NCBI RefSeq assembly: GCF_004010195.1
Contig: NC_057719.1
Coordinates: 45,033,766-45,097,765 of the forward strand
Length of the DNA stretch: 64,000 nucleotides
Direction of reading: 5' to 3'
DNA from: Chiloscyllium plagiosum
Lineage: Eukaryota
In this document: positions 6,955-59,468 of the stretch, one piece after another
Layout of the letters: the number at the start of each line of letters is the position of its first letter
How positions within the stretch are numbered: the stretch's first letter is position 1
Notes under the pieces: generated by a model
The model's input: the letters and a program-made list of their open reading frames with translations, nothing else
Databases searched by the model: none
Told to the model about the DNA's origin: nothing
Translations under genes and position numbers: made by a program

Positions 6955-7062
6955 TTGCCTGAAATGTTAATTTTCTTGGTCCTTGGATGCTGCCTGACCT
7001 GTTGTGCTTTTCCAGCACCACACTCTCGACTCTACTCTTCAGCGTCTGCAGTCTCACTTTGG
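6955..7062 (+). mobile_element. PLE terminal-repeat fragment (family 1), decayed ribozyme half
   Basis: ggatgctgcctgacctgttgtgcttttccagcaccacactctcgac tail shared with 14470-14567. Confidence 0.75.
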
Positions 7063-7149
7063 CCCATTATTCTCTGTGCATGATCAGAGGCATCTCGAAT
7101 AGTGCATGGACATAGTTGCCTTGGTGATGTTGTCCAATTTCTAAATGGT

Positions 7150-8898
7150 TAGAGTCATAGAGATGTACAGCATGGAAACAGACCCTTCAGTCCAACCTGT
7201 CCATGCTGACCAGATACCCCAACCCAATCTAGTCCCACCTGCCAGCATCTGGCCCATATCCCTCCAAACCCTTCCTATTCATATACCCATCCAGATGCCT
7301 TTTAAATGTTGCAATTGTACTAGCCTCCACCACTTCCACTGGCAGCTCATTCCATACACGCACCATCCTCTGCGTGAAAAGGTTGCCCCTTAGGTCTCTT
7401 TTATATCTTTCCCCTCTCACCCTAAACCTATGCCTTCTAGTTCCCCACCCCAGGGAAAAGACTTTGTCTAGTTATCCTATCCATGCCCCTCATGATTTTA
7501 TCAACCTCTATAAGGTCAACCCTCAGCCTCCGACACTCCGGGGAAAACAGCCCTAGCCTATTCAACCTCTCCCGATAGCTCAGATCCTCCAACACTGGCA
7601 ACATTCTTGTAAATCTTTTCTGAACCCTTATAAGTTTCATAACATCTGTCCGATAGGAAGGAGACCAGAATTGCACTCAATATTCCAACAGTGACCTAAC
7701 CAAAGTCCTGTACAGCCGCAACATAATCTCCCCAACTCCTGTATTCAATACTCTGACCAATAAAGGAAAACATACCAAACGCCTTCTTCATGATCCTATC
7801 TACATGTGACTTCACTTTCAAGGAGCTATGAAACTGTACTCCAAGGTCTCTTTGTTCAGCAACACTCCCCAGGACCTTACCATTAAGTGTATAAGTCCTG
7901 CTAAGATCTGCTTTCAAAAAATGCAGCACTTCACATTTATCTAAATTAAACTCCACCTGCCACTTCTCAGCCCATTGGCCCATCTGATCAAGATCCCATT
8001 ATAATCTGAGGTAACCTTCTTCACTGTCCACTACACCTCCAATTTCGGTGTCATCTGCAAACCTACTAACTATACTTCCTATGCTCACATTCAAATCATT
8101 TATATAAATGATGAAAAGTAGAGGACTCATCGATCCTTGTGGAACTCCACTGGTCACAGGCCTCCAGTCTGAAAAAACAACCCTCCACCACCATCCTCTG
8201 TCTTCTACCTTTGAGCCAGTTCTGTATCCAAATGGCTAGTTCTCCCTGTATTCCATGAGATCTAACTGTGCTAACCAGTCTCCCATGGGGAACCTCGTTG
8301 AATGCCTTACTGAAGTCCATATAGATCACATTTACCATTCTGCCCTCATCAATCCTTTATGTTACTTTTTCAATAAACTCAATCAAGTTCATGAGACATG
8401 ATTTCCTACGCACAAAGCCATGCTGACTATTCCTAATCAGTCCTTGCCTTTCCAAATACATGCAAATTCTGTCCCTCAGGATTCCCTCCAACAACTTGCC
8501 CACCACCGATGTCAGGCTCACCGGTCTATAGTTCCCTGGCTTGTCCTTACCACCCTTCTTAAACAGTGACACCACATTAGCCAACCCCTAGTCTTCCAGT
8601 ACCTCACCTGTGACTATCGATGATACAAATATCTCAGTAAGAGGGCCAGCAATCACTTCCCTAGCTTCCCACAGAGTTCTAGTGTACACCTGACCAGGTC
8701 TTGGGGATTTATCCACTTTTATGCATTTCATGACATCCAGGACTTTCTCCTCTGTAATATGGACATTTTTCAAGATGTCACCATCTATTTCCCCACATTC
8801 TGTATCTTCCATGTCCTTTTCCACAGTAAATACTGATGCAAAATACTCATTTAGTATCTCCCCCATCATCTGCAGCTCCACACAAAGGCTGCCTTGCT
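7150..8898 (-). mobile_element. CR1/HER1-like LINE, 5'-truncated, disrupted ORF2 (RT)
   Basis: ORF fragments ANVVSLFKKGGKDKPGNYRPVSLTS, YMDFSKAFNEVPH, WQVEFNLDKCEVLHF, FTQRMVRVWNELP; many frameshifts. Confidence 0.95.
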
Positions 8899-9739
8899 CA
8901 TATCAAACTGATGGCCATCTTACTGGTATCACTTCCTTCTATTTCCTAATTCATTTTTTGACATACCAATCACTTTTAAGATCATTCCTACATGACACCT
9001 TGTGTCTCTTAGTTTAAGAATTTCATAGATCTTTACCAACATAAGCTTGCATTATTGAATAGTTTATGCATTTGCTTTGAGTAGGTATTGTCACCTCCCA
9101 GTGATAGATTACCAGCCCAATCTTCCAACTGATATATCTGAATATTCCCACCAATTTTCAATCTCCCAAACTGCAAGGGCGGTGTGTGATTCTACAATAA
9201 TTGTTTTACTTAAAACAAATTAAAACTCACAGTAACCATACAAACTAATATGTGTAGGACTGTTACATATTTAGTCACAAAATTAAACCAATTTGAAACA
9301 TGTTGAGTCAAAGCATCTTATATTTTCACAATTTACATTTGATTGAACCATAAACAAACCCATAATACCCTACATCAATGATGTTAGAATCAGAGCTCCA
9401 TTGAACCTGAATCCTATGATTTAATTGGATTAAATGCAAGTCACATAGTTTGTTGGAGGGATTCTTGACATGAGGCTGAGAGTTTTCTTGACAAATCTTA
9501 CCAAACTTGCTGCATTCATTGTCAGCCACCATCTTACCACACACCATTCCCGTAATAACTCACCAACCACTGAATATCCCAAAATTGACTGGCATCCCTG
9601 CTGAGGGTGCCATATTTAAAGGCCTGTTGATCTCCCAGACAAGCACTGTCAGTCTAGAGGTTTGCTGCATAGTTTGTTAGATCTGGCATGGACATGAGAG
9701 ACAGGAGGAGGTTGTCCCACTTTACAGCCAGGGTCCTGA

Positions 9740-11110
9740 AGGTCTTCTTCGCTCACTTAATTTCTTTTTTTAAGTTACCCATTCACTTTTTGTATTCTCC
9801 TCAAGCTTCTATTGTTTTGGGCCCTTGAAACCTAATGTAAGCTTCCCTTTTTCTCCCAATATCTAATCCTGTACATTTCGACATCCAGGGTATCTAGACT
9901 CCAGTCACTGCAGGGACCACCTCACAGCTCGGAGAAAGTGAGGACTGCAGATGCTGGAGATCAGAGTCGAGAGTGTGGTGCTGGAAAAGCACAGCAGGTC
10001 AGGCATCATCCGAGGAGCAGAGAATCCTTTCGGCTCTTGCCCGAAACGTTGATTCTCCTACTCCTCGGATGCTGCCTGACCTGCTGTGCTTTTCCAGCAC
10101 CACACTCCCACCTCATATCTTACTGAGTTATGGCCACTATCACCAAAATGCGGTCTGGCAACTTTACAACTTACCAATTTTATTCCCTAAAACATAGTTG
10201 AGCACCACCTCCTCTTGTAGAACGTTCTGTACGCTGGCTTTAAAACTCTCCTGGATACAATTTAAGAATCCTGACACCTTTAATCCTTTCACAGTTTGTC
10301 TATCCGAGTTATCAGGGTGGTTGAAATCCCTAATATTATTACCTTATTATTTTGAACTTCTCTGAAATTTACCTCCATTTCTATCCTTGCATCTCTCCCT
10401 TACAGTTTAGAGGATGTATAGTGCAATCTCAACAATGTGATTGCTTCTTTTCAGTCTCACTTATTTGACTCCAATTGAGGAACCTTAAGACATTATCCCT
10501 GTTTAATGCTGCAATTGACTCTTTAATCGATTTGCATTCCTTGTTTCCTGTCTCTCTCTCTCCCCCCCTCTCCCTGGTCAGTTCCTTAACTCTCTGCCAC
10601 TCTAGTTGAAACCCTCCCAAACAACACAAGCAAACAACATTCCTTCCCCTATCAAATGCTGACAATGGTCTTGGTCCTGGCCAGATGCCACCTGCCTCAG
10701 TGTTCAAAATAAATTCTCTCTTCATTCTCTACTCTCTTTTTAAACTTGCTGCTGTGTTAAAAATAAATCACCTCCACACACTCTGCGCTCTTTTTAAACT
10801 TACTGCTTCCTCTCTCTGCATTGTGTTCAGAACTGGTACTCGTCCAATCACCTTGAGAACCAATCCTAATGTCCCAATAATCTTCCCACACCATTTCTTC
10901 AGCCACATGTTCATCTGATAAAATCTGGTATTTCTACATTACTAGAACATGCAACTGTTGGAATCCTGAGATCGCCACCTTTCAGGTCCCACCTTGTAAT
11001 TTACATCCTGATTTCTATATTCACCTTGTAGGACCTCTTGCCTTTTTTACTTATGTCATTGGTATCAATATGTACCATGCCCACTGGTTCCCTCCCTTGT
11101 GCTAGTTTAG
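9740..11110 (-). mobile_element. Old CR1 5' portion (EN region and ORF1 esterase remnant)
   Basis: Reverse complement of 11051-11080 gives MVHIDTNDI (CR1 ORF1 VHIGTNDI-like motif); similar to 27640-28110. Confidence 0.6.
9931..10107. mobile_element. Inverted pair of PLE terminal repeats with TSD
   Basis: - arm 9931-10026, + arm about 10032-10107; flanks ccacctcacagct (9917-9929) and ccacctcatatct (10108-10120). Confidence 0.85.
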
Positions 11111-11760
11111 AAGTGTAGGTTTTTCTCTGATTCTGGAGATTGAAGCACAGTCCCTAACAGCAATTGCTCAACAATTAATCAGCTCCTGACTTTCCAGTGA
11201 TGCCATTCTCACACATTTTAAAACTTAGCCAAGCAGTTCCGGAAGGAAACTCACTGTGACCTCATCTCTCTTGCTGTGTTCAGAATAAATCACCTCCTCG
11301 CTCTCCATTCTCTTTTCAAACTTACTGCTATTTCCTCTCTCTGTGCATACTCAGAAAAAAAAAATCTCCTCACTCTTTTTAAAGTTACCGTTGCCTCCTC
11401 TCTCTGTTCAAAATAAATCATCTCCTCATTTTCTTCACTGTTGTTAAATTATACTGCTCCTCTCTCTGTGCTGTGTTCAGAATAAATCACCACCACACAC
11501 TCAGTAATCTTTTTAAACTTACTGCTTCCTCTCTTACTATGATCAGAATGAATTCCGTCTTCTCACTTTTTAAAACTGCTGCCTCCTCGCTGTACTGTGT
11601 TTAGAATAAATTCCCTCTCCCTGCTCTTATTAAAAACTACATCCTCTTTCTATTATGTTTAGAATAAACCCCCATCCCCAACCCCTCCCCCACCACTCTG
11701 TCCTTTTTAAAACATATTGAGTCCTCTCTCAGTTATATTTTCAGGATGAATTCACTTCTT
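10700..11760. repeat. Degenerate 55-80 bp tandem repeat (about 2 + 8 units)
   Basis: Recurrent tgttcagaataaatcacctcctc...tttttaaacttactgcttcctctctc at 10700-10830 and 11277-11760. Confidence 0.8.
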
Positions 11761-13090: not shown

Positions 13091-14567
13091 GAAATAGGTA
13101 GCCATGGGCACCTGCATGGGCCCCAGCTATTCCTGTCTCTTTTTCAGCCAAGTAGAACAGTCCATCTTCCGTAGTTACGCCGGCACCACTCCCCACCTCT
13201 TCCTCCACTACATTGATGACTGCATCGGCGCCACCTCGTGCTCCCCAACACATTCCACCCTGACCTTAAATTCACCTGGACCATCTCTGACACCTCCCTC
13301 CCCTTCCTGGACCTCTCCTTCTCCCTTAATGACGACCGACTCAACACTAACATTTTTCAAACCCACCGACTCCCGCAGCTACCTGGATTAAGCCTCTTCC
13401 CATCCTATCTCCTGAAAAAAATGCTATCCCGTATTCCCAATTCCTTCACCTCCGCTGTATCTGTTCCCAGGAGGACCAGTTCCACCACAGAACACATCAG
13501 ATTACCTCCTTCTTTAAAGACTGCAATTTCCCATCCTACGTGGTTGAAGATGCCCTCCAATGCATCTCATCCACATCCCGCACCTCCGCCCTCAAACCCC
13601 ATCCCTCCAACTGCAACAAGGATAGAACCCCCCTGGTGCTCACCTTCCACCCTACCAACCTCCGCATAAACCGCATCATCCGTCAACATTTCCGCCACCT
13701 ACAAATGGACCTCACCATCAGGGATATATTTCCCTCCCCATCCCATCCGCTTTCCGCAAAGACTGTTCCCTCTGTGACTACCTGGTCAGGTCCACGCCCC
13801 CCAACAACCCACCCCCCCTCCTTCTGGCACCTTCCCCTGCCACCGCAGGAATTGCAAAACCTGCGCCCACACCTCCTCCCTCACCTCCATCTAAGGCCCC
13901 AAAGGAGCCTTTCACATCCATCATAGATTCACTTCCACAAACGTAATATTGTATCCGTTGCTCCTGATGCGGTCTCCTTTACATTGGGGAGACGAGACGC
14001 CTTCTCACAGAGTGCTTTAGGGAACATCTCTGGGGCACCCGCACCAATCAACCCCACCACCCCGTGGCTGAACATTTCAACTCCTCCTTCCACTCTGCCG
14101 AAGACATGCAGGTCCTGGGCCTCCTCCACTGCCACTCCCTCACCACCCGACGCCTGGAGGAAGAACGCCTCATCTTCCAAGTTCAACACTTCAACCCCAT
14201 GGCATCAATGTGGATTTCACCAGTTTCCTCATTTCCCCTCCCCCCACCTTACACCAGTTCCAACTTTCCAGCTCAGCACCACCCTCATGACCTGTCCTAC
14301 CTGCCAATCTCCCTTCCCACCGATCCGCTCCACCCTCCTCTCCGACCTTTCACCTTCATCCACCTATTGCACTCACAACTACCTTCTCCCCAGCCCCACC
14401 CATTTTTTCTCCATCCTGGTGGCTCACAGCCACATTCCTGATGAAGGGCTCCTGCCTGAAACGTCGAGTTTCCTACTCCTCAGATGCTGCCTGACCTGCT
14501 GTGCTTTTCCAGCATCACTCTAATCTTGACTCTGATCTCTCCAGCATCTGCAGTCTTCACATTCGCC
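13091..14567 (+). mobile_element. Penelope-like retroelement (RT + GIY-YIG), 5'-truncated, disrupted
   Basis: AMGTCMGPSYSCLF, YIDD, decayed IYCIRC..CGLLYIG GIY-YIG, AEHFNS..RRLEEERLIF; ends in ribozyme-bearing terminal repeat. Confidence 0.92.
14433..14472 (+). ncRNA. Minimal hammerhead ribozyme motif (PLE family 1)
   Basis: CTGATGA(14438)-A-gggc tcct gcct-GAAA-CGTC; core intact, stem II has a G-U pair. Confidence 0.75.
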
Positions 14568-17210: not shown

Positions 17211-17910
17211 ATAGAGTCATAGAGAGGTACAGCATGGAAAAAGACCCTTCTGTCCAACTCGTTCATGCTGACCAATTATCCCAAACTAATCTTGTCCCAC
17301 CTGCCAGCAGCCGGCCCATATCCCTCCAAACCCTTCCTATTCATATACCCATCCAGATACCTTTTACATGTTGAAATTGTACCAGCCTCCACCACTTCCT
17401 CTGGCAGCTCATTCCATACACGTACCACCCTCTGTGTGAAAAAATTGCCCCTTAGGTTTCTTTTATATCTTTCCCCTCTCGTCCTAAACTTATGCCCTCT
17501 AGTTGTGGATTGTTCCACCCCAGGGAAAAGACCTTGACTATTTACCCTATCCATGCCATTCATGATTTTATAAACCTCCATAAGTCACCCCTCAGCCTCC
17601 AACACTCCAGGGAAAACAGCCCCAGCCTATTCAACCCCTGCCTATAGCTCAAATCCTCCAACCCTTGCAACATGCTTATAAATCTTTTCAAGTTTCACGG
17701 CATCCTTCCAATAGGAAGGAGACCAAGATTGCACACAATTTTCCAAAAGTGGCCTAACCAATGCCCTGTATAGCCGTAACATGACCTCAGAACCCCTATA
17801 CTCAATACTCTGACCAATAAAGGAAAACATATCAAACGCCTTCTTCACTATCCTATCTACCTGTGGCTCTACATTCAAGGAGCTATGAACCTGCACTCCA
17901 AGGTCTCTGC
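17211..17910 (-). mobile_element. CR1 LINE 3' fragment
   Basis: DLGVQVHSSLNV, LYRALVRPLLE, FFTQRVVRVWNELP. Confidence 0.93.
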
Positions 17911-21109: not shown

Positions 21110-22533
21110 AACATAGAACATAGAATAATACAGCACAGAACAGGCCCTTCGGCCCACAATGTTGTGCCGAACATTTGTCCTAGCTTAAGCACCCATCCAT
21201 GTACTTAATAAATTGCCGCTTAAAGGTCACCAAAGATTCTGACTCTACCACTCCCACAGGCAGCGCATTCCATGCCCCCACCACTCTCTGGGTAAAGAAC
21301 CCACCCCTGACATCTCCCCTATACCTTCTACCCTTCACCTTAAATTTATGTCCCCTTGTAACACTCTGTTGTACTCGGGGAAAAAGTTTCTGACTGTCTA
21401 CTCTATCTATTCGTCCTGTACAGCTGCAACATCACTTCACGACTCTTGAATTCAATCCCTCTGCTAATGAACGATAATACTCCATAGGCCTTCTTACAAA
21501 CTCTATCCACCTGAGTGGCAACCTTCAAAGATCTATGTACATAGACCCCAAGATCCCTCTGTTCCTCCACCTGACTAAGAACCCTACCATTAACCCTGTA
21601 TTCTTATTTGTTCTTCCAAAATGGACAACCTCACACTTGGCAGGGTTGAACTCCATCTGCCACTCCTCAGCTCAGCTCTGCATCATATCTAAGTCTCTTT
21701 GCAGCCGACAACAGCCCTCCTCACTGTCCACAACTCCACCTATCTTCGTATCGTCTGCAAATTTACTGACCCACCCTTCGACTCCCTCATCTAAGTCATT
21801 AGTATAACTTACAAACAGCAGAGGACCCAGAACTGATTCCTGCGGAACTCCACTTGTAACTGGGCTCCAGGCTGAATATTTGCCATCTACCACCACTCTC
21901 TGACTTCGACTGGTTAGCCAGTTTTCTATCCAATTGGCCAGATTTCCCTCTATCCCATGCCTCCTGACTTTCCGCATAAGTCTACCATGGGGAACCTTAT
22001 CAAATGCCTTACTGAAATCCATGTACACTACATCCACTGCTCTTCCCTCATCCACATGCTTGGTCCCCTCCTCGAAGAATTCAATAAGACTTGTAAGGCA
22101 AGATCTACCCTTCACAAATCCGTGCTGGCTGTCCCTAATCAAGCAGTGTCTTTCCAGATACTCATAAATCCTATCCCTCAGTACCCTTTCCATTACTTTG
22201 CCTACCACCGAAGTAAGACTAACTGGCCTGTAATTCCCGGGGTTATCCCTATTCCCTTTTTTGAACAGGGGCACAACATTCGCCACTCTCCAGTCCCCTG
22301 GTACCACCCCCGTTGACAGTGAAGACGAAAAGATCATTGTCAACGGTACTGCAATTTCCTCTCTTGCTTCCCACATAATCCTAGGATATATCCCGTCAGG
22401 CCCAGGGGACTTGTCTATCCTCAAGTTGTTCAAAATGTCCAACACATCTTCCTTCCTAACAAGTATCTCCTCTAGCTTACCAGTCCGTTTCACACTCTCC
22501 TCTTCAACAATACGGTCCCTCTCGTTCGTAAAC
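21110..22533 (-). mobile_element. Young CR1 LINE, 5'-truncated, 287-codon open RT segment, internal deletion near 21412
   Basis: [47 protein letters not shown]; (atagaac)-type tail. Confidence 0.95.
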
Positions 22534-22970
22534 AATAAGAGATGTCAGTAAAATGACCAATAGTTTTAAAGAATCACCAGTTAGAATTTAGGATTATACT
22601 GTTTTAGCCAATCTGAGATTCCTCACTGGCAAGCCAATTAGACTTCAGGATGTGTCTGATCATAAATGGGATAGGGGTAGTGGCTAGACTGGCTTTATTA
22701 GAGATGGTTAATGGCTTGTCTACAAGAAAGGAAGTGTGAAAACAGAGGTGAATTCCAGTCAACAGAAGAAGATAAGAGCTGTAATCCCAGTCAACAAGTG
22801 TTCTGTACTAGTGTCCCAAATGGATTGACTTTTTTTTAAATTGAGTATCATTTCTTTTATATTTGCTTTGCTAAACTTACCAAATTCTCTGAAATATATT
22901 AAGACATATTTCTCCCTGAAATGGCCTTAACAGGGCTTGTAAACATTTGGATTGGCTCTCTGAACTTAGA

Positions 22971-23074
22971 GGAGAAAGTGAGGACTACAGATGCTGGAGA
23001 TCAGAGCTGAAAATGTGTTGGTGGAAAAGCGCAGCAGGTCAGGCAGCATCCAAGGAACAGGAGAATCGACGTTT
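22971..23074 (-). mobile_element. Short PLE terminal-repeat insertion truncated inside the ribozyme
   Basis: Near-identical to 59341-59443; 5' end reads aaacgtcgattctcc. Confidence 0.85.
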
Positions 23075-26984: not shown

Positions 26985-27134
26985 ATCCTTCCCACCTTTC
27001 TTGTAAATTGGAACAACATTTGCTATCTTCCAGTCCTCTGGCATCTTCCTATTACCAGAGACAAGGTTTAAAAAAATTGGGTCAGAGCCCCTGTAATGTC
27101 TTCCCTTATCTCCCACAACAGACTGGGATACAAC

Positions 27135-27214
27135 ATTCCTGATGAAGGGCTTTTGCCCAAAATGTCGATTTTCCTGCTTCGCAGATGCTACCTGACCTGC
27201 ACCATTCTAATCTT
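27135..27214 (+). mobile_element. 80-bp PLE terminal fragment with 14-bp TSD, decayed hammerhead
   Basis: TSD gactgggatacaac at 27121-27134 and 27215-27228; ctgatgaagggcttttgcccaaaatgtc (GAAA changed to AAAA). Confidence 0.8.
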
Positions 27215-28141
27215 GACTGGGATACAACTCGATCAGACCCAGGGATTTGTTCACTTTTAAAGCCACCTCCTTGTTTCATGCATCAATTTGTTCAAGAACT
27301 TCTTAAGTTCTATACTTGCCTCCTTCTCTCAAGTAAAGACAAATGTGAAATATTCATTTAACACTTGACCAATGTACTCTGGCTTTGCACACAGATTGAC
27401 CCCATGGTCCCTAATAGACTTTTATTCTTTCACTGGTTATTTGCTTCCCCTTGGTATAATTGTAGAATTTCTTGGGATTCTTCCTAATCTTCTCCACCAG
27501 TAGTTGCTCATGCCCCTCCTTGCTCTCCTAATTGCTTTATTGAGATTCCCCCACACTTTTGACACTCTATGTTTTGCTCCCTTTGTACCTGTTGTTTATC
27601 TCTCTTTCCCTTTTTATGCAGTTCTGAATATTCATAGACATCCAGGGTTCTCTAGGCTGATGGTCCTACAGTACACTCTCTAAAGGGACCATGTTGGGTC
27701 TATACTCACCCCAGTATCTTTTTGAACACCTCCCACTGTTTTACTGTAGATTTATCCTCAAGTAACTCTTGTTGGTCTATTTTGGCCAGGCGTGCCTTAT
27801 TTTAATAAAATTTACCTTGCCCAATCCAAAATCCATTTTTGAAGACTGTCTTTCTCCTTTTCTATAACAAACTTAAAATGTATAGTGTAGTGGTTGTTTT
27901 CACTAAAATGCTTCCCCACTGTCACCTCGAATATCCAGTCCAGCTCTGCTATGTCACTTGTTGGACCTTCTACACATCGATATAACAAGCTCTTCTGTAT
28001 ACTTTAAGAAACCTGTCCCTCTATACTCTTTACATTATGATTATCCCAATTAAGATTGGGGTACTGTCTTTGAAATCCCTTAATATAATTACACTTTTAT
28101 TGTTTTTACATGGCTTAGTGAATTCACCCCGTATTTGTTCT

Positions 28142-29800
28142 TTCCCAAGATCCACAAGCCTGACCACCCTGGCCGACCCATTGTCTCAGCCTGCTCCTGC
28201 CCCACCAAACCCATCTACACCTACTTCGATGCTGTCCTATCCCCCCAGTCCAGGAACTCCCCACATACGTTCGAGACACCACCCACACCCTCCACCTCCT
28301 CCAAGACTTCCATTTCCCTGGCCCCCAACGCCTCATCTTCACCATGGACATCCAGTCCCTCTACACCTCCATCCGCCATGACCAGGGCCACCAAGCCCTC
28401 CGTTTCTTCCTCACCCGACGTCCCTAACAGTACCCTTCCACCAACACTCTCATTCATTTGGCTGAACTGGTCCTCACCCTTAACAATTTCTCCTTCAAAT
28501 CCTCCCACTTCCTCCACACCAAAAGGGTAGCCATGGGCACTGGTATGGCCCCTGCTATGCCTGTCTCTTTGTTGACTACGTAGAACAGTCCATCTTCCGT
28601 AATTACACCGGTACCATTCCCCACCTCTTCCTCTGCTACATTAATGACTGCATCGGCGCCACCTCGTGCTCCCACGAGGAGTTGAGCAGTTCATCAACTT
28701 CACCAACACATTCCACCCTGACCTTAAATTCACCTGGACCATCTCTGACACCTCCCTCCCCTTCCTGGACCTCTCCATCTCCATTAATGACGACTGATTC
28801 AATACTGACATTTTTTACAAACCCACTGACTCCCACAGCTACCTGGACTACAACTTCTCCCACCCTGCCTCCTGCAAAAATGCCATCCTGTATTCCCAAT
28901 TCCTCCACCTCTGCTGTATCTGTTCCCAGGAGGACCAGTTCCACCACAGAACACACCAGATGGCCTCCTTTTTTAAAGACTGCAATTTCCCTTCCCACAT
29001 GGTTGATGATGCCCTCTAGCACATCTCATCCACTTCCTGCACCTCTACCCTCTANNNNNNNNNNNNNNNNNNNNNNNNNNNNNNNNNNNNNNNNNNNNNN
29101 NNNNNNNNNNNNNNNNNNNNNNNNNNNNNNNNNNNNNNNNNNNNNNNNNNNNNNNNNNNNNNNNNNNNNNNNNNNNNNNNNNNNNNNNNNNNNNNNNNNN
29201 NNNNNNNNNNNNNNNNNNNNNNNNNNNNNNNNNNNNNNNNNNNNNNNNNNNNNNNNNNNNNNNNNNNNNNNNNNNNNNNNNNNNNNNNNNNNNNNNNNNN
29301 NNNNNNNNNNNNNNNNNNNNNNNNNNNNNNNNNNNNNNNNNNNNNNNNNNNNNNNNNNNNNNNNNNNNNNNNNNNNNNNNNNNNNNNNNNNNNNNNNNNN
29401 NNNNNNNNNNNNNNNNNNNNNNNNNNNNNNNNNNNNNNNNNNNNNNNNNNNNNNNNNNNNNNNNNNNNNNNNNNNNNNNNNNNNNNNNNNNNNNNNNNNN
29501 NNNNNNNNNNNNNNNNNNNNNNNNNNNNNNNNNNNTCCCACCTATCCACTCCACCTTCCTCTCTGACCTATCACCTCCATCCTCACCCCCATTTACCTAT
29601 TGTACTCTTTGCTACCTTCTCCCCAGCCCCACCCCCATTTATCTCTCCACCCGGAAGGCTTCCTGTCTCTATTCCTGATGAAGGGCTTTTGCCCAATACG
29701 TCAATTTTCCTGCTCCTCGGATGATGCCAGGCCTGCTGTGCTTTTCCAGCACCACTCTAATCTCGACTCTGATTTCCAACATCTGCAGTCCTCATTTTCC
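28142..29800 (+). mobile_element. Penelope-like retroelement, disrupted, spans an assembly gap
   Basis: PKIHKPDHPGRPIVSACSCPT, MDIQSLYTS, YIND; highly similar to 13091-14567; decayed hammerhead at 29675-29702. Confidence 0.92.
29055..29535. other. Assembly gap (N)
   Basis: Run of N. Confidence 1.
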
Positions 29801-30341: not shown

Positions 30342-30790
30342 AGAAACTAAAACAGACATTGCTGGAAAAGCTCAGCAGGTCTGGCAACATCCGTGAAGAG
30401 AAATCAGATTTAATGTTTCAGGTCCAGTGACATTTCCTCAGAACTGATGGTAGCTGGGAAAATGTCACTTTATATGCAGAAGGTAGGGTGGGTGAAGGGA
30501 TGAAGGTGATTGGGGATAGAGCCGAAAGAGAGAGAAGAACAATTGGATAGACAAAGGAGTGGATAATGATCTGGCTGGGAGACTGAATAGCTGTTAATGG
30601 TGACTGTTAATGGCTAACAATGTGTTGTGTGTGTAACAGCAGACTATGTGATCACAAGGCCTGGTGAGGAAGGGTCACCAGGTTCCCCCCCCCAATTTCT
30701 CTTCACAGGTGTTTCCAGACTGACTGACCTTTCCTGGCAACTTGTGTTTTTGTTTCTGATTTACAACATTTGTAGTTATTTTGGTTTTCA
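30342..30790. mobile_element. Old PLE family 3: inverted terminal repeats
   Basis: 30342-30405 is the reverse complement of about 30695-30760; - strand ctgaggaaatgtcactggacctgaaacatta is a decayed hammerhead. Confidence 0.65.
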
Positions 30791-34165: not shown

Positions 34166-34350
34166 GAAGTAAAGGCAGAAAATGCTAGAAATATTCAGCA
34201 GGTCAGGGAGTGCCTGTGGAGTCATAGACCCAGAGCTCTCCACAGCTTCTCTGCACAGTTTTCTCTTCATAGCTGCTGCTTGTCAAGCTGATCATTTCCA
34301 ATTTTTAACAAAAATTGTTTCATTTCAGGTTTCTAACGTCTGCAACATTT
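34166..34350. mobile_element. Old PLE-like inverted terminal remnant
   Basis: cagaaaatgctagaaatattcagcaggtcagg.. followed by an inverted decayed copy. Confidence 0.45.
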
Positions 34351-35489: not shown

Positions 35490-37020
35490 CTGCATGGAAT
35501 TATATAGGAATACAAAGGGAATGTGAGTCAGAAACAGCCATTTGGTCCAACCAACCTATCCCTTAGGTTAACCTTCATTTACATTCATTTCTACTCTTAT
35601 ATTTCCTCATTTAAATCCATCATTGTAATCTTCAATTCTCTTCTCCTCCAATACTTTTTGCTTCATCACTCCATGAGGTCTTGAGCTTGACAGTCTCACT
35701 ACTCTTTGGGTGAAGAAGTATCTTCTGAATTGTATATTGAATATCTTGGCTACTATCTTGTGTTGGAGAAAGTGAGGACTGCAGATGCTGGAGATCAGAG
35801 CTGAAAACGTGTTACTGGAAAAGCGTAGCAGGTCAGGCAGCATTCAAGGAGCAGGAGAATTGACGTTTCGGGCATGAGTCCTTCTTCAGGACTGGGGCTG
35901 AAGAAGGGCTCATGCCCAAAACGTCGATTCTCCTGCTGCTTGGATGCTGCCTGACCTGCTGCGCTTTTTCAGCTACAATCTTATGTTGGCAGTGTTTATA
36001 TTATGCCTTCCCCCACAAGTGGAAACATTCTCTTTTCATCCGCTCGATCAAAATCTGATGTAATTTTAGACCTCGATTAGATTGCTTCTCAGCATTTTTA
36101 CATCAAGAGAGAAGAGACGCAGCCTACTCATCTGTTTTGAGATATATCTCCCCATGCAATTTGGTGTTATTTGCCATCTCTCTATTGCCTCAATCACCTT
36201 TGCTTTTGTAAATATAGTGCAGAACTGCCCTGTAATACTAAGTATAACCAAGGTTTGACACCAGTTTAGTACAGCTTTCTTATTTTTCAATTCCATTCCT
36301 CTAGAAATAAAGCCTATTGCTTGGTTTGTCTTTTGGAAGCCTTGCTAAAGAGTGGTGCAACTTCTTGCGGTTGATACGTTTGCATATCTTGATTCCTTTT
36401 CTCCTCTCTCCCTCATCTAGATCTTCCAAGTTTTATTCTTCCTGCCATAATGTACTACTACACATTTGTGTGTTGAGCTTCATCTGCCAAATGTTTGCCC
36501 ATTTTGCAGATTTATTAATTTCTTCCTGTAACTTATTTCAGCCCTCCTTGGTATTGACTACCAATCCCCCCTCACAATTTGATGTAGTTTGCAAATTTAG
36601 AAATTGTGTTTGTATGTTAATGTAAGTTAATATAAAATGTGCATCCCAGCACTGGTCTTTATGGAACACCATTTCCCTGCCTCTTGTGGTCTGAACTGCC
36701 ATTTTCTCTCACTTTCTGCCTTTTTTCAAAGTCAGCTGGCAATCCATTCTGATATTTGTGTTCCAACTTCACATTCTCTGACCTTATTCATAAGTCTATT
36801 ATGGGACACCAAAATGGGCTTTTGATGATCCAGATAAATTATATCTACTATATTATCACTCTCTACCTCTTTAAAAAAAAATCAGTAAAGTTAGTTAAAC
36901 AAAATGATCCCTTTGTAAAATTCATGCTAATTGTTCATGATTATTTCTTTTCTCTTGTTGTCCTTGAGATCCCTACATTAGTTAGGATTCCACTATATTT
37001 CTGTAGTTCCTGGATAACCA
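35490..37020 (-). mobile_element. Old CR1 LINE remnant
   Basis: RRYFFTQRVVRL, LRLFSL..LRSNLIEV, RT FAND-like region near 36580. Confidence 0.7.
35767..35971. mobile_element. Back-to-back inverted PLE terminal repeats, two hammerhead motifs, 18-bp TSD
   Basis: TSD gctactatcttgtgttgg (35749-35766) / gctacaatcttatgttgg (35972-35989); - copy ctgaagaaggactcatgcccgaaacgtc, + copy ctgaagaagggctcatgcccaaaacgtc. Confidence 0.88.
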
Positions 37021-37885: not shown

Positions 37886-37960
37886 CATTCCTGCTAAAGG
37901 ACTTATGCCCAAAACGCTGCCTAACCTGCTGTGTTTTTCCAGCACCACTCTTTTCGACAT
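37886..37960 (+). mobile_element. Decayed PLE terminal fragment
   Basis: cattcctgctaaaggacttatgcccaaaacg..cctgctgtgtttttccagcaccactc. Confidence 0.6.
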
Positions 37961-38826
37961 CATCTTCCCAGTAACACTGCTGAATGGAAGAGCTGTTGGT
38001 CTGTGACTGGCTTGGCAAGCAGAGACTTACTCCCTCATGGAAGGCCCCTTCCCTGGCCTTCTGTTACATGCCTGACTCTCTCATAATTTGAGACTGTTTT
38101 CCTTCCCCCAGAGAAGGGAATGTGGGTCTCTTGCTGGCTCTACAATGAGCCACCCTCATGCCTCCAAAGATTGCCTCCTATTTTGGGAGAATCAGATCAA
38201 CGCAAGGCTAGGGGAGTGAACTGGGTGTAATGGGGGGGGGGTTAGGGCTCTACCAATGTAAGTAGACCTGATGGACCTGAGGAAAGCATTCCTCCTGCTC
38301 TGCAACTAACACAATCTTTCTTGATGGATTGGGGTTTTCTCACTTCTCTTTACTTGCCGGAGCCTGCTGGGAATCCCACTCAGTGTTTTGCAAATTCAGT
38401 TAAACGAGTGACCATTGACTTACATGGTTCCAGATGATAACCTTGCCATTAGTCACAGGTATTGTGTAACCATCAAACCTTCAAGCTGTTGGTTTGCAGA
38501 TCCCTTATGTTGCAATGGATACAGACAGTTATTATGGTTGCTTATATGATTACATCTATAATGTTTAAATGTTCTTAGGTTTGGGGAAAAAAAACATACA
38601 GCTAATTCTTTTTGGCTAAGTGCAAGTTGCTTCTAGTTCTGTTTCATGATTCTTCTCATGAGACCCAGTAAGATTTCTTGCTGTGTCTTACCAAATGTGC
38701 CTCATTATCCACATACCCTGCCCTCAGTGCATTCCTCACATCTGATCCTATCCTGATCTCAGCACACGCTGTTGCTGAAAGAACTTGTCACTCACTGAAA
38801 TCTCTGCTAGACCTTCACTTTAAAGT

Positions 38827-40262
38827 TGAAAATGTGTTGCTGGAAANNNNNNNNNNNNNNNNNNNNNNNNNNNNNNNNNNNNNNNNNNNNNNNNNNNNNN
38901 NNNNNNNNNNNNNNNNNNNNNNNNNNNNNNNNNNNNNNNNNNNNNNNNNNNNNNNNNNNNNNNNNNNNNNNNNNNNNNNNNNNNNNNNNNNNNNNNNNNN
39001 NNNNNNNNNNNNNNNNNNNNNNNNNNNNNNNNNNNNNNNNNNNNNNNNNNNNNNNNNNNNNNNNNNNNNNNNNNNNNNNNNNNNNNNNNNNNNNNNNNNN
39101 NNNNNNNNNNNNNNNNNNNNNNNNNNNNNNNNNNNNNNNNNNNNNNNNNNNNNNNNNNNNNNNNNNNNNNNNNNNNNNNNNNNNNNNNNNNNNNNNNNNN
39201 NNNNNNNNNNNNNNNNNNNNNNNNNNNNNNNNNNNNNNNNNNNNNNNNNNNNNNNNNNNNNNNNNNNNNNNNNNNNNNNNNNNNNNNNNNNNNNNNNNNN
39301 NNNNNNNNNNNNNNNNNNNNNNNNNNNNNNNNNNNNNNNNNNNNNNNNNNNNNNNNNNNNNNNNNNNNNNNNNNNNNNNNNNNNNNNNNNNNNNNNNNNN
39401 NNNNNNNNNNNNNNNNNNNNNNNNNNNNNNNNNNNNNNNNNNNNNNNNNNNNNNNNNNNNNNNNNNNNNNNNNNNNNNNNNNNNNNNNNNNNNNNNNNNN
39501 NNNNNNNNNNNNNNNNNNNNNNNNNNNNNNNNNNNNNNNNNNNNNNNNNNNNNNNNNNNNNNNNNNNNNNNNNNNNNNNNNNNNNNNNNNNNNNNNNNNN
39601 NNNNNNNNNNNNNNNNNNNNNNNNNNNNNNNNNNNNNNNNNNNNNNNNNNNNNNNNNNNNNNNNNNNNNNNNNNNNNNNNNNNNNNNNNNNNNNNNNNNN
39701 NNNNNNNNNNNNNNNNNNNNNNNNNNNNNNNNNNNNNNNNNNNNNNNNNNNNNNNNNNNNNNNNNNTGTTCCACATATCCTATGAAGAGGCAGGCATAGC
39801 TGGGGCCCATGCGGGGTGCCCATGGCTACTCCTTTGGTTTGGAGGAAGTGGGAGGATTGGAACGAGAAGTTGTTCAGGGTGAAGACCAGTTCAGTCAGTC
39901 GAAGGAGGGTGTCAGTGGAAGGGTACTGGTTGGTACGGCAGGAAAGGAAGAAGCGGAGGACTTTGAGTCCTTCGTGATGCAGGATGGAAGTGTACAGGGA
40001 CTGGATGTCCATGGTGAAGATAAGGCATTGGGGACCGGAGAAGCGCAAATCATGGAGGTCGAGGGCGTGGGTGGTGTCCCAAACATAGGTGGGGAGTTCT
40101 TGGACTAAGGGGGACTGGACCGTGTTGAGGTATGCAGAGATGAAGGGCTCATGCCCAAAACGTCAATTCTCCTACTCCTTGGATGCTGCCTGACCTGCTG
40201 CGCTTTTCCAGCAATACATTTTCAGCTCTGATCTCCAGCATCTGCAGTCCTCACTTTCTCCT
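38827..40262 (-). mobile_element. Penelope-like element with inverted terminal repeat at its 5' truncation, 14-bp TSD
   Basis: TMDIQSLYTSI..KGVAMG..MGPSYACLFIG on -; + strand terminal repeat 40139-40262; TSD cttcactttaaagt at 38813-38826 and 40263-40276. Confidence 0.9.
38847..39766. other. Assembly gap (N)
   Basis: Run of N. Confidence 1.
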
Positions 40263-41538: not shown

Positions 41539-42515
41539 ATTAAAATAAAACACAGAAATGCAGACATTGGAAATCTGAAACAAAAATAGAAATTGCTGGA
41601 GAACCTCAGTAAAAAATCTGGCAGGATCTGTAGAGAGAAAACAGAGTTAACATTTCTGGTCTAGTGATCCTTTGTTAGAAGTGATAGTAGTTTGGAAAAT
41701 ATGGTATATATGCTGAAAACAATTGGTTTGGGGAGCAGAAGGTGGGGGTGGGCTGGGCTGGGCTAAAGGAGAAAATGATAGCTGAAGGTGGAGCCGAGAG
41801 GAAGAGAAAAAGGCAGACAAAGGGATGGATAATGGTGAGGCAGGGAGAAACAAAGAGGTGCAAATGGAGACAGTGAGTGGTCTGCTATACATTGTGTGTA
41901 TAGTTTGGGGGGGCGGGGGGGTGTGGAATGAAACCCAGACTGGGTGACCACTTTGCAGAACACCTGTGTGCTATGCGCAAAAAAGACCCTGAGCTTCCAG
42001 TTGCCTGCCGCGTTAAAACACCACCATGTTCCCTGGCCAGCATTTCTCTCAGGCTTGCTGCAGTGCTCCAGTGAGGCCCAATGCAAGCTGGAAAAACAGC
42101 ACCTCATTTTCTGCTTGGGGACCCTGTAGCCTTCAGGACTCCGTATCGAGTTCAGTAATTTAAGGGCCTGAGCACCTTCTCCCAAGTCCTTACCCCAATC
42201 CTCCCACACCCTAGGCCTATTATCACAGCCGACCTATTTTCGCTTACGGTCCCCATTAGCAGCTTTTCTTTTTCCCTGGCTCACCATTATCCATCCCTTT
42301 GTGTGGCCAACTGCCTCTCTCTTCCTCTGAGCTCTATCTCTACCTATCACTTACTTCTTTACCACCCCTCTCCTGTTTTTGGCATGTATACCACCTTTTC
42401 CTAGCCACTATCCATTCTGAAGAAGGGTTCACTGGACTCAAAATGTTAACCCTGTTTTCTCACAATTCACAGATGCTGCCAGATCTGCTGAGTTCCTCCA
42501 GCAATTTCTGTCTTT
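41539..42515 (+). mobile_element. Old PLE (family 3): GIY-YIG C-terminus with inverted terminal repeat and TSD
   Basis: LLQCSSEAQCKLEKQHLIFCLGTL; decayed hammerhead at about 42416; flanks gttaccatgagga (41526-41538) / gttaccatggagga (42516-42529). Confidence 0.75.
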
Positions 42516-43295: not shown

Positions 43296-43600
43296 ATCAT
43301 AGACTCCCTACAGTGTGGAAGCAGGCAATTCGACCCATCAAGTCCACACCAACCCTTCAAAGAGCATCCCACCCAGATCGACCCCTCTGCCCTATCCCCA
43401 TAGTACTGCATTTCCCATGGCTAATCCATCTAGCCTGCTCATCCCTGGACACTGTGGGCAATTTAACATCGCCAAGCCACCTAACTTGCACATCTTTGGG
43501 CTGTGGAAACTGGAGCCCCCAGAGGAAACCCACACAGATATGAGGAGAATGTGCAAACTCTACACTGCACTCTACAGTGCTAGCAACTGTGCTGCCCTAT
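43296..43600 (-). mobile_element. Older HE1-like V-SINE
   Basis: Diverged match to the V-domain and 3' tail. Confidence 0.8.
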
Positions 43601-43635
43601 AAGTCTGATATTTATTGGGAAATTAGTAAATAAGT

Positions 43636-44682
43636 TTGAAGAGGTAACAAGTAGGTTAGACCAGGGAAACCCAGTGGATGTGGTCTATCTAGACTTTCAA
43701 AAGGCCTTTGATAAGGTGCCACATGGGAGGCTGCTGAGCAAGGTGAGGGCCCATGGTGTTCGAGGTGAGCTGCTGGGATGGATTGAGGATTGGCTGTCTA
43801 ACAGAAGGCAGAGAGTTGGGATAAAAGGTTCTTTCTCAGAATGGCAGCCGGTGACGAGCGGTGCCCCGCAGGGTTCGGTGCTGGGGCCACAGCTGTTCGC
43901 AATATATATTAATGATTTGGATGAGGGAACCGGGGGCATTCTAGCGAAGTTTGCCGATGATACGAAGTTAGGTGGACAGGCAGGTAGTACTGAGGAAGTG
44001 GGGAGGCTACAGAAGGATCTAGACAGTTAAGAAGGCGAATGCAATGTTGTCTCTTATCTCAAGAGGGTTGGAATATAACAGCAGAGATGTACTACTAAGA
44101 CTTTATAAAGCTCTGGTTAGGCCCCATTTGGAGTACTGTGTCCAGTACTCCACACCTCAGGAAGGACATACTGGCACTGGAACGTGTCCAGCGGAGATTC
44201 ACATGGATGATCCCTGGAATGACAGGTCTAACATATGAGGAACGGCTGAGGATACTGGGATTGTATTCTTTGGAGTTTAGAAGATTAAGGGGAGACTTAA
44301 TAGAGATGTACAAAATAATACATGGCTTGGAAAAGGTGGATGCTAGGAAATTGTTTCCGTTAAACGAGGAGACTAGGACCCGTGGACACAGCCTTAGAAT
44401 TAGAGGGGGTCATTTCAGAACAGAAATGCGGAGACATTTCTTCAGCCAGAGAGTGGTGGGCCTGTGGAATTCATTGCCACGGAGTGCAGTGGAAGCCGGG
44501 ACGCTAAATGTCTTCAAGGCCGAGTTTGATAGATTCTTGTTGTCTAGAGGAATTAAGGGCTACGGGGAGAATGCTGGTAAGTGGAGCTGAAATGCGCATC
44601 AGCCATGATTGAATGGCGGAGTGGACTCGATGGGCCGAATGGCCTTACTTCCACTCCTATGTCTTATGGTCTTATGGTCTTA
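43636..44682 (+). mobile_element. Young CR1 LINE, 5'-truncated, internal deletion at about 44028
   Basis: [52 protein letters not shown]; (tcttatgg)n tail. Confidence 0.95.
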
Positions 44683-56067: not shown

Positions 56068-56301
56068 TCTAGATTAGAGTGGTGCTGGAAAAGCACAGCA
56101 GGTCAGGCAGCATCCGAGGAGCAGGAAAATCGACGTTTCGAGCAAAAACCCTTCATCAGGAATAGAGGCAGGGTGCCTGCAGAGTGGAGAGATAAATGAG
56201 AGGGGGATGGGGGTGGGGAGAAAGTAGCATAGAGTACATTAGGTGAATGGGAGTGGAGATGGAGGTGATAGGTCAGGGAGGAGGGTGGGCGAAGGTAGCC
56301 T
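56068..56301 (-). mobile_element. PLE terminal fragment with core-intact hammerhead, 15-bp TSD
   Basis: TSD aaaatacaaaaggag at 56053-56067 and 56302-56316; - strand CTGATGA-A-gggt tttt gctc-GAAA-CGTC at about 56132-56159. Confidence 0.87.
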
Positions 56302-56703: not shown

Positions 56704-57850
56704 TAGAGTCATAGAGATGTACAGCATGGAAACAGACCCTTCGGTCCAACCCATCCATGCTGACTAGATATCCCAACCCAATCTAGTCCCACCTGCCAGC
56801 ACCCGGCCCATATCCCTCCAAACTCTTCCTATTCATATACCCATCCAAATGCCTCTTAAGTACCAGCCTTCATCACTTCCTCTGGCAGCTCATTCCATAC
56901 ACGTACCACCCTCTGTGTAAAAGTTGCCCCTTGGGTCTCTTTTATATCTTTCTCTTCTCGCCTTAAACCTATGCCCTCTAGTTTTGGACTCCCCCACCCC
57001 AGGGAAAAGACTTTGTCTATTTATCCTATCCATGCTCCTCATAATTTTGTAAACCTTTCTAAGGTCACCCCTCAGCCTCCGACGCTCCAGGGAAAACAGC
57101 CCCAGCCTGTTCACCCTCTCCCTATAGCTCAAATCCTCCAACCCTGGCGACATCCTTGTAAATCTTTTCTGAACCTTTTCAAGTTTCACAACATCTTTCT
57201 GATAGGAAGGAGACCAGAAGTGCACGCAATATTCGAACAGTGGCCTAACCAATGTCCTGTACAGCTGCAACATGACTTCCCAACTCCTGTACTCAATACT
57301 CTGACCAATAAAAGAAAGCATACGAAACGCCTTCTTCACTATCCTATCTACCTGCGACTCCACTTTCAAGGAGTTATGAACCTGCACTCCTGGGTCTCTT
57401 TGTTCAGCAACACTCCCTAGGACCTTTCCATTAAGTGTATAAGTCCTGCTAAGATTTGCTTTCCCAAAATGCAGCACCTTGCATTTATCTGAATTAAATT
57501 CCATCTGCCACTTCTCAGCCCATCTGGTCCAGATCCTGTTGTAATCTGAGGTAACCTTCTTCGCTGTCCACTACACCTCCAATTTTGGTGTCACCTACAA
57601 ACTTACTAACTGTAAATCTTATGCTTACATCCAAATCATTTATATAAATGATGAAAAGTAGTGGACCCAGCACCGAGCCTTGTGGCACTCCACTGGTCAC
57701 AGGCCTCCAGTCTGAAAAACAACCCTCTACCACCACCTTTTTGAACTAGTTCTGTATCCAAGTGGCAAGTTCTCCCAGTATTCCGTGAGATCTAACCTTG
57801 CTAACCAGTCTCCCATGGGGAACCTTGTTGAACACCTTGCTGAAGTCTAT
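56704..57850 (-). mobile_element. CR1 LINE, 5'-truncated
   Basis: [13 protein letters not shown], 204-aa C-terminal ORF2 fragment; same subfamily as 7150-8898. Confidence 0.95.
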
Positions 57851-58722
57851 ATTGACATTTCTTGAAACAGAAAGAAGCAGGACTACACAGGGAAGGTCAA
57901 TGTCTATAGATCGCGGGTCAAGATTCATTATACATGGAAGATAGTTGTACCTGGAGGATTGATTGGTGAGGTTCTGACAGTTGAGGATATTAGAAGGCAG
58001 GTCAAGGTTGATGGATAGCATAACAAGAGCTTTGAAGAGGACAATGACTGAGCGCTGCAGGATAACAGATACCAGTGGGCTGAGGGGATGTTGTTATGTA
58101 AATGCTGCATTTTTGAGGACAATGTGTTTTCTTTTGTCGATTGATTCACAATGTGAAAGTCAAAAGTGGAACAGTGTAGTATTCATTTATTAGTTACACA
58201 AGGTCCTGTAAGGCTGGCACCAGGTGTCTTTGGGTTGAAAAGCAACCTGGTAACAGCCTGTGGAACTTGAAGTTACTGATTTTCAACCTAAAGTCTCCCT
58301 GAAACTTGGGGCAGGGCTAATCGAGCAAATCAAGACCTCTGCTGCAGGTGAGGTCAGCCAATGAGAGTCAAGTCTGTGACACCAGGAGTTGCTCAGGGGC
58401 ATGGTGAGGGGGAGGAATAAAGAATGGGAGAGCAGTAGTAATAGGGAATTCTATCATACAGGGAACAGGAATATTTCTGTAACCACAGAGTTGACATCAG
58501 GCATGCACACTGCCTGCTTGGTACCAGGGACATGGCTGCAGGACAGTCTGAAGGGGGAGAGAGAACAGCCAACGGTTGTAATCAGTGTCAGTACCACGGA
58601 TATTGGTTAAAAGAAGAGGAATGTGATCCTGCATGCAGAATAAATGCTCTTGGAAAATAAATCAAAAGGAACACCTTGAAGATGGTAATCTCCAGATTAC
58701 TCCCACCGCCATGTCCAAGCAA

Positions 58723-58910
58723 AGTTTGGGAAAAGATTTGTAGCTCGGGTGCTCGTTGTTGTGGTTCTGTTTGCCGAGCTGGGAATTTGTGTTGCAGACA
58801 CAAGTGCAGAAGCGCTTCACAGGAAGCTCCCAAGCACTGAGGATGTCACCTAGACAGGGGACGAAACGTCTGCAACACAAATTCCCAGCTCGGCGAACAG
58901 AACCACAACA
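58723..58910. mobile_element. Hairpin insertion of a distinct ribozyme-bearing (PLE family 2) repeat, 12-bp TSD
   Basis: TSD atgtccaagcaa at 58711-58722 and 58911-58922; 43-bp inverted arms 58757-58799 / 58868-58910 with 1 mismatch. Confidence 0.85.
58834..58873 (+). ncRNA. Intact minimal hammerhead ribozyme motif (family 2)
   Basis: gca-CTGAGGA-T-gtcacct agac aggggac-GAAA-CGTC-tgc: stem I gca/tgc, stem II 6 of 7 pairs, predicted cut after 58870. Confidence 0.8.
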
Positions 58911-59340
58911 ATGTCCAAGCAAGATAGAACAATTGAATGCATAGCTGGAGTCACTATGTAGGAAGGAGGAGTTTAGATTCATGTGGCTTTGGGATCGATG
59001 CTGGGGAAGATGAGGTCTGTGCAAACTTGATGGGTTGCAGCTCAGCAGTACTGGGACTAACCACTGGTACTTAGGGAGAGGGTGTATACCAGAGAAGCAG
59101 AAGAACAGGAAAAGTGACCGGGGCTAGTGATGGGCAAGGGCGTTTGAAGAATGAGGGAAACAAAGATGGAAATGAAAGCCTGAAAAGTAGGAAGCAAAAG
59201 TTTAAGGTAGTGGAAACAAGGGCTAGCAGCAAATCAATCCATAGTGTAAAAGAGTATGAAAAATGTTGTCAGAACAGATCTAAAGGTACTATATTTGAAT
59301 GCACAGACATTTGTAGAAATGTTGACAAATTATGATTGTG

Positions 59341-59465
59341 GAGAAAGTGAGGACTGCAGATGCTGGAGATCAGAGCTGAAAATGTGTTGCTGGAAAAGCG
59401 CAGCAGGTCAGGTAGCATCCAGGGAACAGGAGAATCGACGTTTCGGGCATAAGCCCTTCTTCAGG
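59341..59465 (-). mobile_element. 125-bp PLE terminal unit (hammerhead + 3' tail), 13-bp TSD
   Basis: TSD aattatgattgtg at 59328-59340 and 59466-59478. Confidence 0.88.
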
Positions 59466-59468
59466 AAT
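59432..59468 (-). ncRNA. Intact minimal hammerhead ribozyme motif (family 1)
   Basis: attc-CTGAAGA-A-gggc ttat gccc-GAAA-CGTC-gatt; perfect 4-bp stem II; predicted cut between 59437 and 59436. Confidence 0.8.

Follow-up and report, generated by a model that had tools for sequence, protein, structure and literature searches.

Minimal type I hammerhead ribozymes have been described in the pseudo-long terminal repeats (pLTRs) of metazoan Penelope-like elements (PLEs) (Cervera & De la Pena 2014, PMC4209133), and their role is debated between processing, circularisation, regulation and that of a passenger. In PAc, the Poseidon element of Anolis carolinensis, two internal reverse-transcription starts are reported to define a tail. 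The enzyme is reported to act mainly on uncut RNA, and cleavage by the hammerhead to require protein (Frangieh et al. 2024, PMC11167929). The Neptune and Nematis clades are defined by a CX2-5CxxC linker between the reverse transcriptase (RT) and the endonuclease (Craig et al. 2021, PMC8557442). Non-LTR retrozymes, which are repeats of type I hammerheads derived from PLE pLTRs, have been reported in one chondrichthyan genome (Li et al. 2026, 10.64898/2026.07.22.740005). Here a dispersed repeat is described from the shark Chiloscyllium plagiosum, in a window of 64,000 nt (contig NC_057719.1, forward-strand positions 45,033,766 to 45,097,765). Judged by its sequence, the repeat is the end module, or pLTR, of a PLE and carries a minimal type I hammerhead motif of the kind already described. 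Its short copies are read, with a probability of roughly two in three, as insertions of short complementary DNAs (cDNAs) made from uncut element RNA, the 5' end of which is likely to lie at the hammerhead's front edge.

The shark motif shares its architecture with the minimal hammerheads presented by Cervera & De la Pena (PMC4209133). It has a type I topology, an extra nucleotide that separates position 9 from 10.1, a G10.1-Y11.1 pair and a stem III reduced to a palindrome (15.2-16.2) with no loop 3, and it is similarly located in a pLTR. A preliminary description of this DNA had proposed a PLE minimal type I hammerhead with an extra base after A9 and a palindromic stem III; the assignment is borne out by these features and by the G10.1 pair. 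The core boxes, with U16.1 and H17, are present in four window copies and are invariant across large subfamily majorities of what is called here family A. At least three further hammerhead families (B, C and D, for which the core boxes were required by the descriptor) occur in the genome with different letters in stem II, helix I and stem III; linkage to an open reading frame (ORF) was examined for family A. The palindromic remnant of stem III is C-G in families A, B and D and G-C in family C, a pair at this position being part of the descriptor. The open helix I, which has 2-5 bp in this class of hammerheads, is paired in 78% of comparisons made within copies and in 40% of those made across families (68 matches, among which related copies are not independent). 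Since the helices covary between the four families, the source elements are likely to have been selected for the hammerhead fold.

The shark motif differs from the published minimal hammerheads in helices I and II. Helix II has 4 bp here, as opposed to 7-8 bp in the Schistosoma families (PMC4209133), and the third pair of helix I is a U-U mismatch in the commonest subfamilies. Helix I of family A is thus weak, with two pairs before the mismatch, and only two of its first three pairs are formed in 28 of 42 family A matches. For the best window copy, folding gave a helix I pairing probability of 0.08 for the motif alone and 0.008 within the 130-nt module, and the active dimer was not returned when two copies were cofolded.

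As in the genomes surveyed by Cervera & De la Pena, the motifs are mostly single and dispersed, with head-to-head pairs on opposite strands and several consensus families in one genome (PMC4209133). The exact count given below is about ten times the highest vertebrate figures of that survey, about 4,000 in the coelacanth and 9,000 in Xenopus, which were obtained with a different descriptor. No cartilaginous fish is represented in the inspected rows of the alignment in PMC4209133. A literature search, in which listed papers were judged by title, found no report on shark PLE hammerheads; the work of Lunse et al. on dimer cleavage by PLE hammerheads may list shark motifs.

The connection of the module to PLEs was followed in the window and beyond it. 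Three window copies lie at decayed PLE bodies, and YIDD, CX4CX2C and GIY-YIG-type motifs can be read in frameshifted translations of the window. In 24 of 30 RT-matching loci of the genome the module lies on the same strand, no more than 1.5 kb downstream, as a 3' repeat, in keeping with the earlier claim that the hammerheads are carried by PLE terminal repeats. Some copies run past the tail into an open frame leading toward the RT. The downstream block and tail of the module overlap the 5' region of this ORF, one subfamily being out of frame with the first ATG. As the module both ends PLE bodies and, through its tail, reads into the N-terminus of the ORF, it is regarded as the pLTR. None of the four PLE fragments of the window was matched by Pfam, so the GIY-YIG assignment is taken from the motif; RVT_1 was matched in two sister loci elsewhere in the genome. 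Two further RVT_1 matches in the window were assigned to a different repeat of the long interspersed nuclear element (LINE) type and not to a PLE.

The CX4CX2C linker of the element at 13098-14567 points to the Neptune and Nematis clades. Similarly to the elements described by Craig et al. (PMC8557442), the shark elements combine an RT, a zinc-finger-like linker and a GIY-YIG motif with strong 5' truncation, partial tandems, an inverted 5' copy, a 30-40 bp tail and a putative transcription start in the pLTR; of these, the pLTR, the optional tail and the inverted 5' copy are traits of endonuclease-positive PLEs. They differ in that most copies here consist of the end module alone, and the clade is assigned from the linker. 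The 5' end of the ORF was found in partial copies only, with at least 1,227 first-look candidates for the ORF 5' segment genome-wide (obtained with a diverged query). Both assembly gaps of the window (runs of N at 29055-29535 and 38847-39766) fall inside PLE bodies, as they do in most of the long PLE loci fetched; full elements are under-represented in the assembly.

The resemblance to PAc extends to the arrangement of the termini. In both, the hammerhead lies at the junction of pLTR and ORF, there are two internal starts with an optional tail in the 5' region of the ORF, uncut RNA is the likely template and RNA-seq ends do not gather at the cut site (PMC11167929). The CX2-5CxxC linker is present here and absent in Penelope/Poseidon, and the ORF, which in PAc begins within stem II, begins here downstream of the hammerhead. 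A 5' pile-up at the hammerhead edge does not figure in the parts of PMC11167929 consulted. The non-LTR retrozymes of Li et al. share the derivation from PLE pLTRs but form head-to-tail tandem units, whereas the shark copies are dispersed or head-to-head and start before the cut site. A tandem retrozyme identity was rejected, as a same-strand intact neighbour within 1 kb, of the sort that could give dimers in cis, is found for only 2 of 31 intact copies, and 88 of 151 short copies stand head-to-head with an antisense partner.

The abundance of the motif was determined in 1.06 Mb, made up of the window and five 200-kb blocks of the same genome. A minimal-hammerhead descriptor, from which helix I was absent, gave 57 matches, compared with one in the reversed sequence and 0, 0 and 0 in three shuffles. 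A 28-nt pattern of core plus stem II has 87,506 exact matches in the whole genome and its reversal none. As the controls return at most one match, the recurrence of the motif is not due to chance, and the very large genomic count expected earlier is confirmed. The Rfam covariance models detected no hammerhead family in the window at E<=5. With the block downstream of the ribozyme as an anchor, the same 1.06 Mb yielded 303 matches, 228 of them at 15 bits or more, of which 192 belong to family A and 186 do not abut N. Extrapolation from the anchor matches gives about 650,000 copies of the module genome-wide, and the intact copies are estimated at about 106,000.

The main evidence on the origin of the short copies, or stubs, comes from their ends, which are numbered relative to core C3 of the hammerhead. 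The 5' ends were placed for a score-filtered set of 177 copies, in addition to which 12 more extend beyond -140. Sixty-one of the 177 begin at -5..-1, and in an alternative set of 186 copies 56 begin at -5..-2. Expressed per nucleotide, the ends amount to 0.09 at -140..-13, 2.4 at -12..-6 and 12.2 at -5..-1, followed downstream by 2.5 at 0..19, 0.9 at 20..26, 2.0 at 27..28 and 0.6 at 29..55. Only 4 of the 177 copies begin at the cut (27..28), and the pile-up at the hammerhead's front edge rules out cut-site ends as the main class. Copies that continue into the ORF show the same edge: in a set of 30 loci, from which 12 that begin further downstream and one that was not contiguous are set aside, 11 of the 17 reaching the core begin at -9..+1. 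In family C 23 of 59 copies begin at -12..-1. The 3' ends form two clusters about 35 nt apart, at +90-93 and +124-127, around a nested hairpin. Target-site duplications of at least 7 bp flank 29 of 63 solo copies, whereas 200 shuffles gave a mean of 7.0 and a maximum of 12; the solo copies are therefore separate insertions.

Sequence words upstream of the edge were compared with TATA and initiator consensus words. In three long copies of family D a TATA-like word lies 33-34 nt upstream of C3, and two of the three have an initiator-like word at -4. Such words, and transcription starts within pLTRs, are reported for other PLEs (PMC3846280, PMC2377424). Judged by eye, a TCAKTY word immediately precedes helix I in 6 of 44 aligned rows from Cervera & De la Pena (PMC4209133).

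Ends at the predicted cut site were then considered genome-wide. Patterns diagnostic of truncation were matched 270 times at the cut site, 87 times one base downstream of it and 82 times two bases downstream. When shifted one base upstream the pattern had 252 matches; to judge from the words listed, these resemble small internal deletions, and they did not serve as a baseline. A single junction word is common to 68 of the 100 cut-site matches listed. Thirty of these loci, inspected by eye, comprise 14 inversions joined across helix I homology, five other microhomology inversions, three small insertions or duplications and eight other junctions. Because cut-site ends are few in the genome and most of those inspected are microhomology inversions, any cleavage-derived class makes up well under 1% of copies.

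The preferred reading of these ends as those of inserted short cDNAs can be set out as follows. Transcription would start at the -5..-1 edge, driven by words located upstream, in the 3' untranslated region (UTR) of a tandem neighbour. By analogy with PAc, the two 3' clusters would represent two reverse-transcription start sites, so each mRNA would carry start sites near both of its ends. Priming near the 5' end would give a short cDNA, comparable to a strong-stop product, that would be inserted, often with an inverted partner and with a target-site duplication. Selection would have acted on the source elements only. Circular RNA as the template was rejected, since copying from it should run on beyond -4. 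A spliced leader was likewise set aside, as no shared upstream sequence was seen when the flanks were examined by eye.

A further step concerns the ribozyme itself. A putative slow hammerhead, assisted by dimerization or by protein, would on cutting remove a leader of about 32 nt and separate the ORF from the 3' priming sites, and for this reason cut RNA would rarely be copied. Cleavage of this kind could determine whether an RNA is copied or is instead translated or degraded. It is therefore tentatively suggested, as a possibility that we consider less probable than its opposite, that the hammerhead forms the first 32 nt or so of the mRNA as a switch of its fate, uncut RNA being reverse-transcribed and cut RNA translated or destroyed, with the approximately 650,000 insertions arising as strong-stop-like products of the upstream priming site. 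In viral 5' UTRs, type I hammerheads that cleave slowly have been connected with cap-independent translation (PMC13725137), which is mentioned as a lead only.

The alternative that survives best, although we regard it as unlikely, is that the stubs are solo pLTRs left by recombination between the terminal repeats of an element. The RNA would still begin at -4, with no insertion of short cDNAs. Recombination predicts both the solo copies flanked by target-site duplications and the ORF-bearing copies that start at the same edge. However, the density of truncations per nucleotide is 2.5 within the module and 0.09 immediately upstream of it, a difference of about 28-fold, as fits short templates, and the candidates for the ORF 5' segment are few beside the estimated number of modules. 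In addition, the inverted partner of more than half of the short copies is a signature of integration. A second alternative, which appears improbable, places at -4 not the end of an RNA but a hot spot for 5' joining, caused either by microhomology between the AT-rich edge and the endonuclease target or by stalling of the RT. The preference of the PAc endonuclease for an ATT word (PMC11167929) and the frequency of microhomology junctions in this genome are in its favour. The edge sequence of family C is different and yet piles up, however, and more than 100 nt of upstream sequence stays at low density without a comparable second peak. The hammerhead helices would also presumably be unwound before the enzyme reaches -4.

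The sequence decay of the inserted copies bears on whether they still work. In the 109 copies that reach C3, the core diverges by 0.028 outside CpG sites, stem II by 0.060 and the linker by 0.048. At A and T sites the core diverges like the linker, CpG sites stand at 0.17 and the catalytic G12, at 0.25, is the most mutated core base. With CpG and base class taken into account, conservation of the core does not exceed that of the linker, and purifying selection on inserted copies was not seen. The inserted copies decay neutrally. The test set beforehand, that the core should be conserved better than its flank across copies, thus gave a negative outcome with respect to the linker, G12 being altered in 25% of the copies. 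The hammerhead is intact in 31 of the 109. Among these, 27 keep the first two pairs of helix I and 14 have an inverted partner, and a further count gives 14 with helix I and without a partner. The head-to-head pairs are predicted to form long hairpins in which the motif is buried.

RNA evidence was taken from about 2% of the reads of one fragmented poly(A) single-cell run with the same species label, a library that cannot show 5' ends. The reads cover the module on both strands, with a profile that mirrors the genomic stubs. If the second mate is taken as sense, the ratio of sense to antisense reads is 1.17-1.26 both before and after the cut site, where these reads show no drop confined to the sense strand. 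The G12A change is 1.4-2-fold more frequent in inferred-sense than in antisense reads (45/477 vs 18/376, p=0.012; 61/493 vs 36/421, p=0.07), and the difference is not significant at neighbouring CpG sites. About 150-180 reads, aligned at window position 59341 and at a second locus of the genome, pass from the tail into one shared flank with a poly(A)-signal-like word, which suggests that an abundant host mRNA contains a sense copy close to its 3' end.

The preliminary description had concluded that the genome bears a very large burden of RNA motifs with the potential to cleave themselves. Given the small intact fraction, the antisense pairing of most short copies and the equal read coverage across the cut, this is an overstatement, and the copies are likely to be fossils rather than a load of working ribozymes. 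That the dispersed intact copies act in trans as dimers and cleave host transcripts on a large scale is very improbable: the estimated intact copies and the exact matches are numerous, copies are present in RNA and G12A is slightly in excess in inferred-sense reads, but reads are equally balanced on both sides of the cut, decay is neutral, helix I scarcely forms in the folding predictions, cofolding returns no active dimer, and published minimal hammerheads are reported to be inactive as monomers and weak as dimers (PMC4209133).

Several observations weigh against the insertion of short cDNAs from an RNA that starts at the hammerhead edge. No intact full-length element was present among 20 loci picked mostly for long open frames, all of which are gapped or truncated. 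Family B lacks the edge, 13 of its 17 copies extending beyond -45, and family A has only a weak TATA-like word upstream. The 14 loci of the 30 inspected that start exactly at the cut behind an inverted partner could be cleavage products. In the PLE of D. virilis the transcription start is reported to lie 46 nt ahead of an intron that ends directly against helix I, and a start at helix I is therefore not general. No pile of read starts or ends, and thus no capped 5' end, was found in the single-cell poly(A) run, whose library cannot reveal one. The sense excess of G12A is a weak hint, from one sample with overlapping reads, of some cutting in vivo or of one abundant locus.

Within the window, all 12 coordinates listed earlier proved to be copies of a single repeat of about 95-130 bp, according to a profile built from the window copies. 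The profile search found 13 clear copies and one stub at an N gap, which adds a clear copy at 9930-10026 (-) and the stub at 38824-38846 (-) to those known. As had been claimed, four copies, at 14438 (+), 35889 (-), 56159 (-) and 59464 (-), retain intact catalytic boxes. At 35889, however, an A-C mismatch in stem II and the loss of G1.1 break stem II and helix I, and an alternative hairpin is predicted; core, stem II and helix I are thus all kept in only three window copies, which would be able to form the minimal fold. Two of these, 14438 and 56159, have G-U pairs in stem II. The remaining sites hold decayed or partial copies as described, that at 23065 being on the minus strand. The proposed loss of the core by a CpG-type change was also verified, with G12 replaced by A at 27139, 35898, 37890 and 40139 and the same replacement joined by a second core change at 29675.

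A complete short copy (59340..59468, -) extends from -4 to +125 around C3 at 59464 and contains an intact hammerhead, the conserved block and the tail. Its predicted cut lies between 59437 and 59436, and a target-site duplication of 10-13 bp flanks it. A copy with 129 nt of 3' UTR (56069..56288, -) has a hammerhead at 56159 with an intact core and the G-U pair in stem II, no tail, and a 15-bp target-site duplication. Of the PLE bodies, that at 13098..14567 (+) is 5'-truncated and frameshifted, and reads from the RT C-terminus through the CX4CX2C linker and the GIY-YIG endonuclease to a pyrimidine-rich 3' UTR, the hammerhead and the tail; C3 is at 14438, the predicted cut is at 14465/14466 and stem II is closed by G-U. 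The 5'-truncated PLE at 28135..29800 (+) is interrupted by the gap at 29055-29535 and ends in the hammerhead at 29675 with its two core changes. On the minus strand, the 5'-truncated RT body at 38824..40130 enters the gap at 38847-39766 and has the stub at 38824-38846 as its end module. Head-to-head with it lies an inverted short copy (40139..40262, +; +2 to +125) with the G12 to A change.

Two pairs of short copies are arranged head-to-head. In the pair at 35765..35978 the minus-strand copy (35765-35897) has the intact core with broken stem II and helix I, and the plus-strand copy (35898-35978) has G12 changed. Its transcript is predicted to fold into a single long hairpin of -130 kcal/mol with the motif buried. 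The pair at 9930..10107 is truncated within the hammerhead, with 9930-10026 (-) starting from +28 and 10032-10107 (+) from +9, and a long hairpin of -125 kcal/mol is predicted. The remaining copies are an old one at 6952..7057 (+), truncated at +14 and without the first core box; one at 22969..23074 (-), which begins at about +20 and has neither the first box nor stem II; a short one at 27133..27219 (+), which begins at about -6 with G12 changed and an internal deletion in the block; and a decayed short one at 37886..37957 (+) with a changed core and an internal deletion.

The other families are also represented. Family B, most copies of which are long, has a longer, bulged stem II, a clean 3-bp helix I and, some 53 nt upstream, a TATA-like word. 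An intact family B hammerhead with its 3-bp helix I lies at 58837-58870 (+), with an inverted partner at about 58700-58798 (-), the pair spanning 58700..58910. Family C has 62 anchor matches in about 1 Mb and stem III swapped to the other palindrome; the ends of its copies repeat the 5' edge and form two clusters on the 3' side. Family D is older and shares the downstream block of family A with a different hammerhead; in its block an ATG is directly preceded by a pyrimidine tract and AG, resembling a splice acceptor. The family D copy at 30358..30474 (-) has C3 at 30441, a decayed hammerhead and the block shared with family A, and upstream of C3 a TATA-like word at 33 nt and an initiator-like word at 4 nt. 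A second copy (42415..42504, +), with its hammerhead at 42417, has G12 changed, and other remnants lie at 2583-2635 (+), 5658-5738 (-) and 34182-34222 (-). The LINE-type repeat is present as many fragments (7150-8537, 17212-17908, 21250-22544, 43584-44590, 56704-57880 and 63002-63992), with RVT_1 matches in the two tested, and 63747-63992 contains a 147-bp tandem duplication within this region. A degenerate tandem repeat with units of about 60-70 bp occupies 10696-11534.

Neither the motif nor the element class is new, and no host function is indicated. What the genome offers is hundreds of thousands of insertion junctions, which argue against cut or circular RNA as the usual template and point to a 5'-leader position of the hammerhead. 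The numerous copies paired head-to-head could supply double-stranded RNA in large amounts. If the hammerhead did act as a switch between copying and translation or decay, the genome would record both where the element RNA starts and that the ribozyme was switched off while the RNA was copied.

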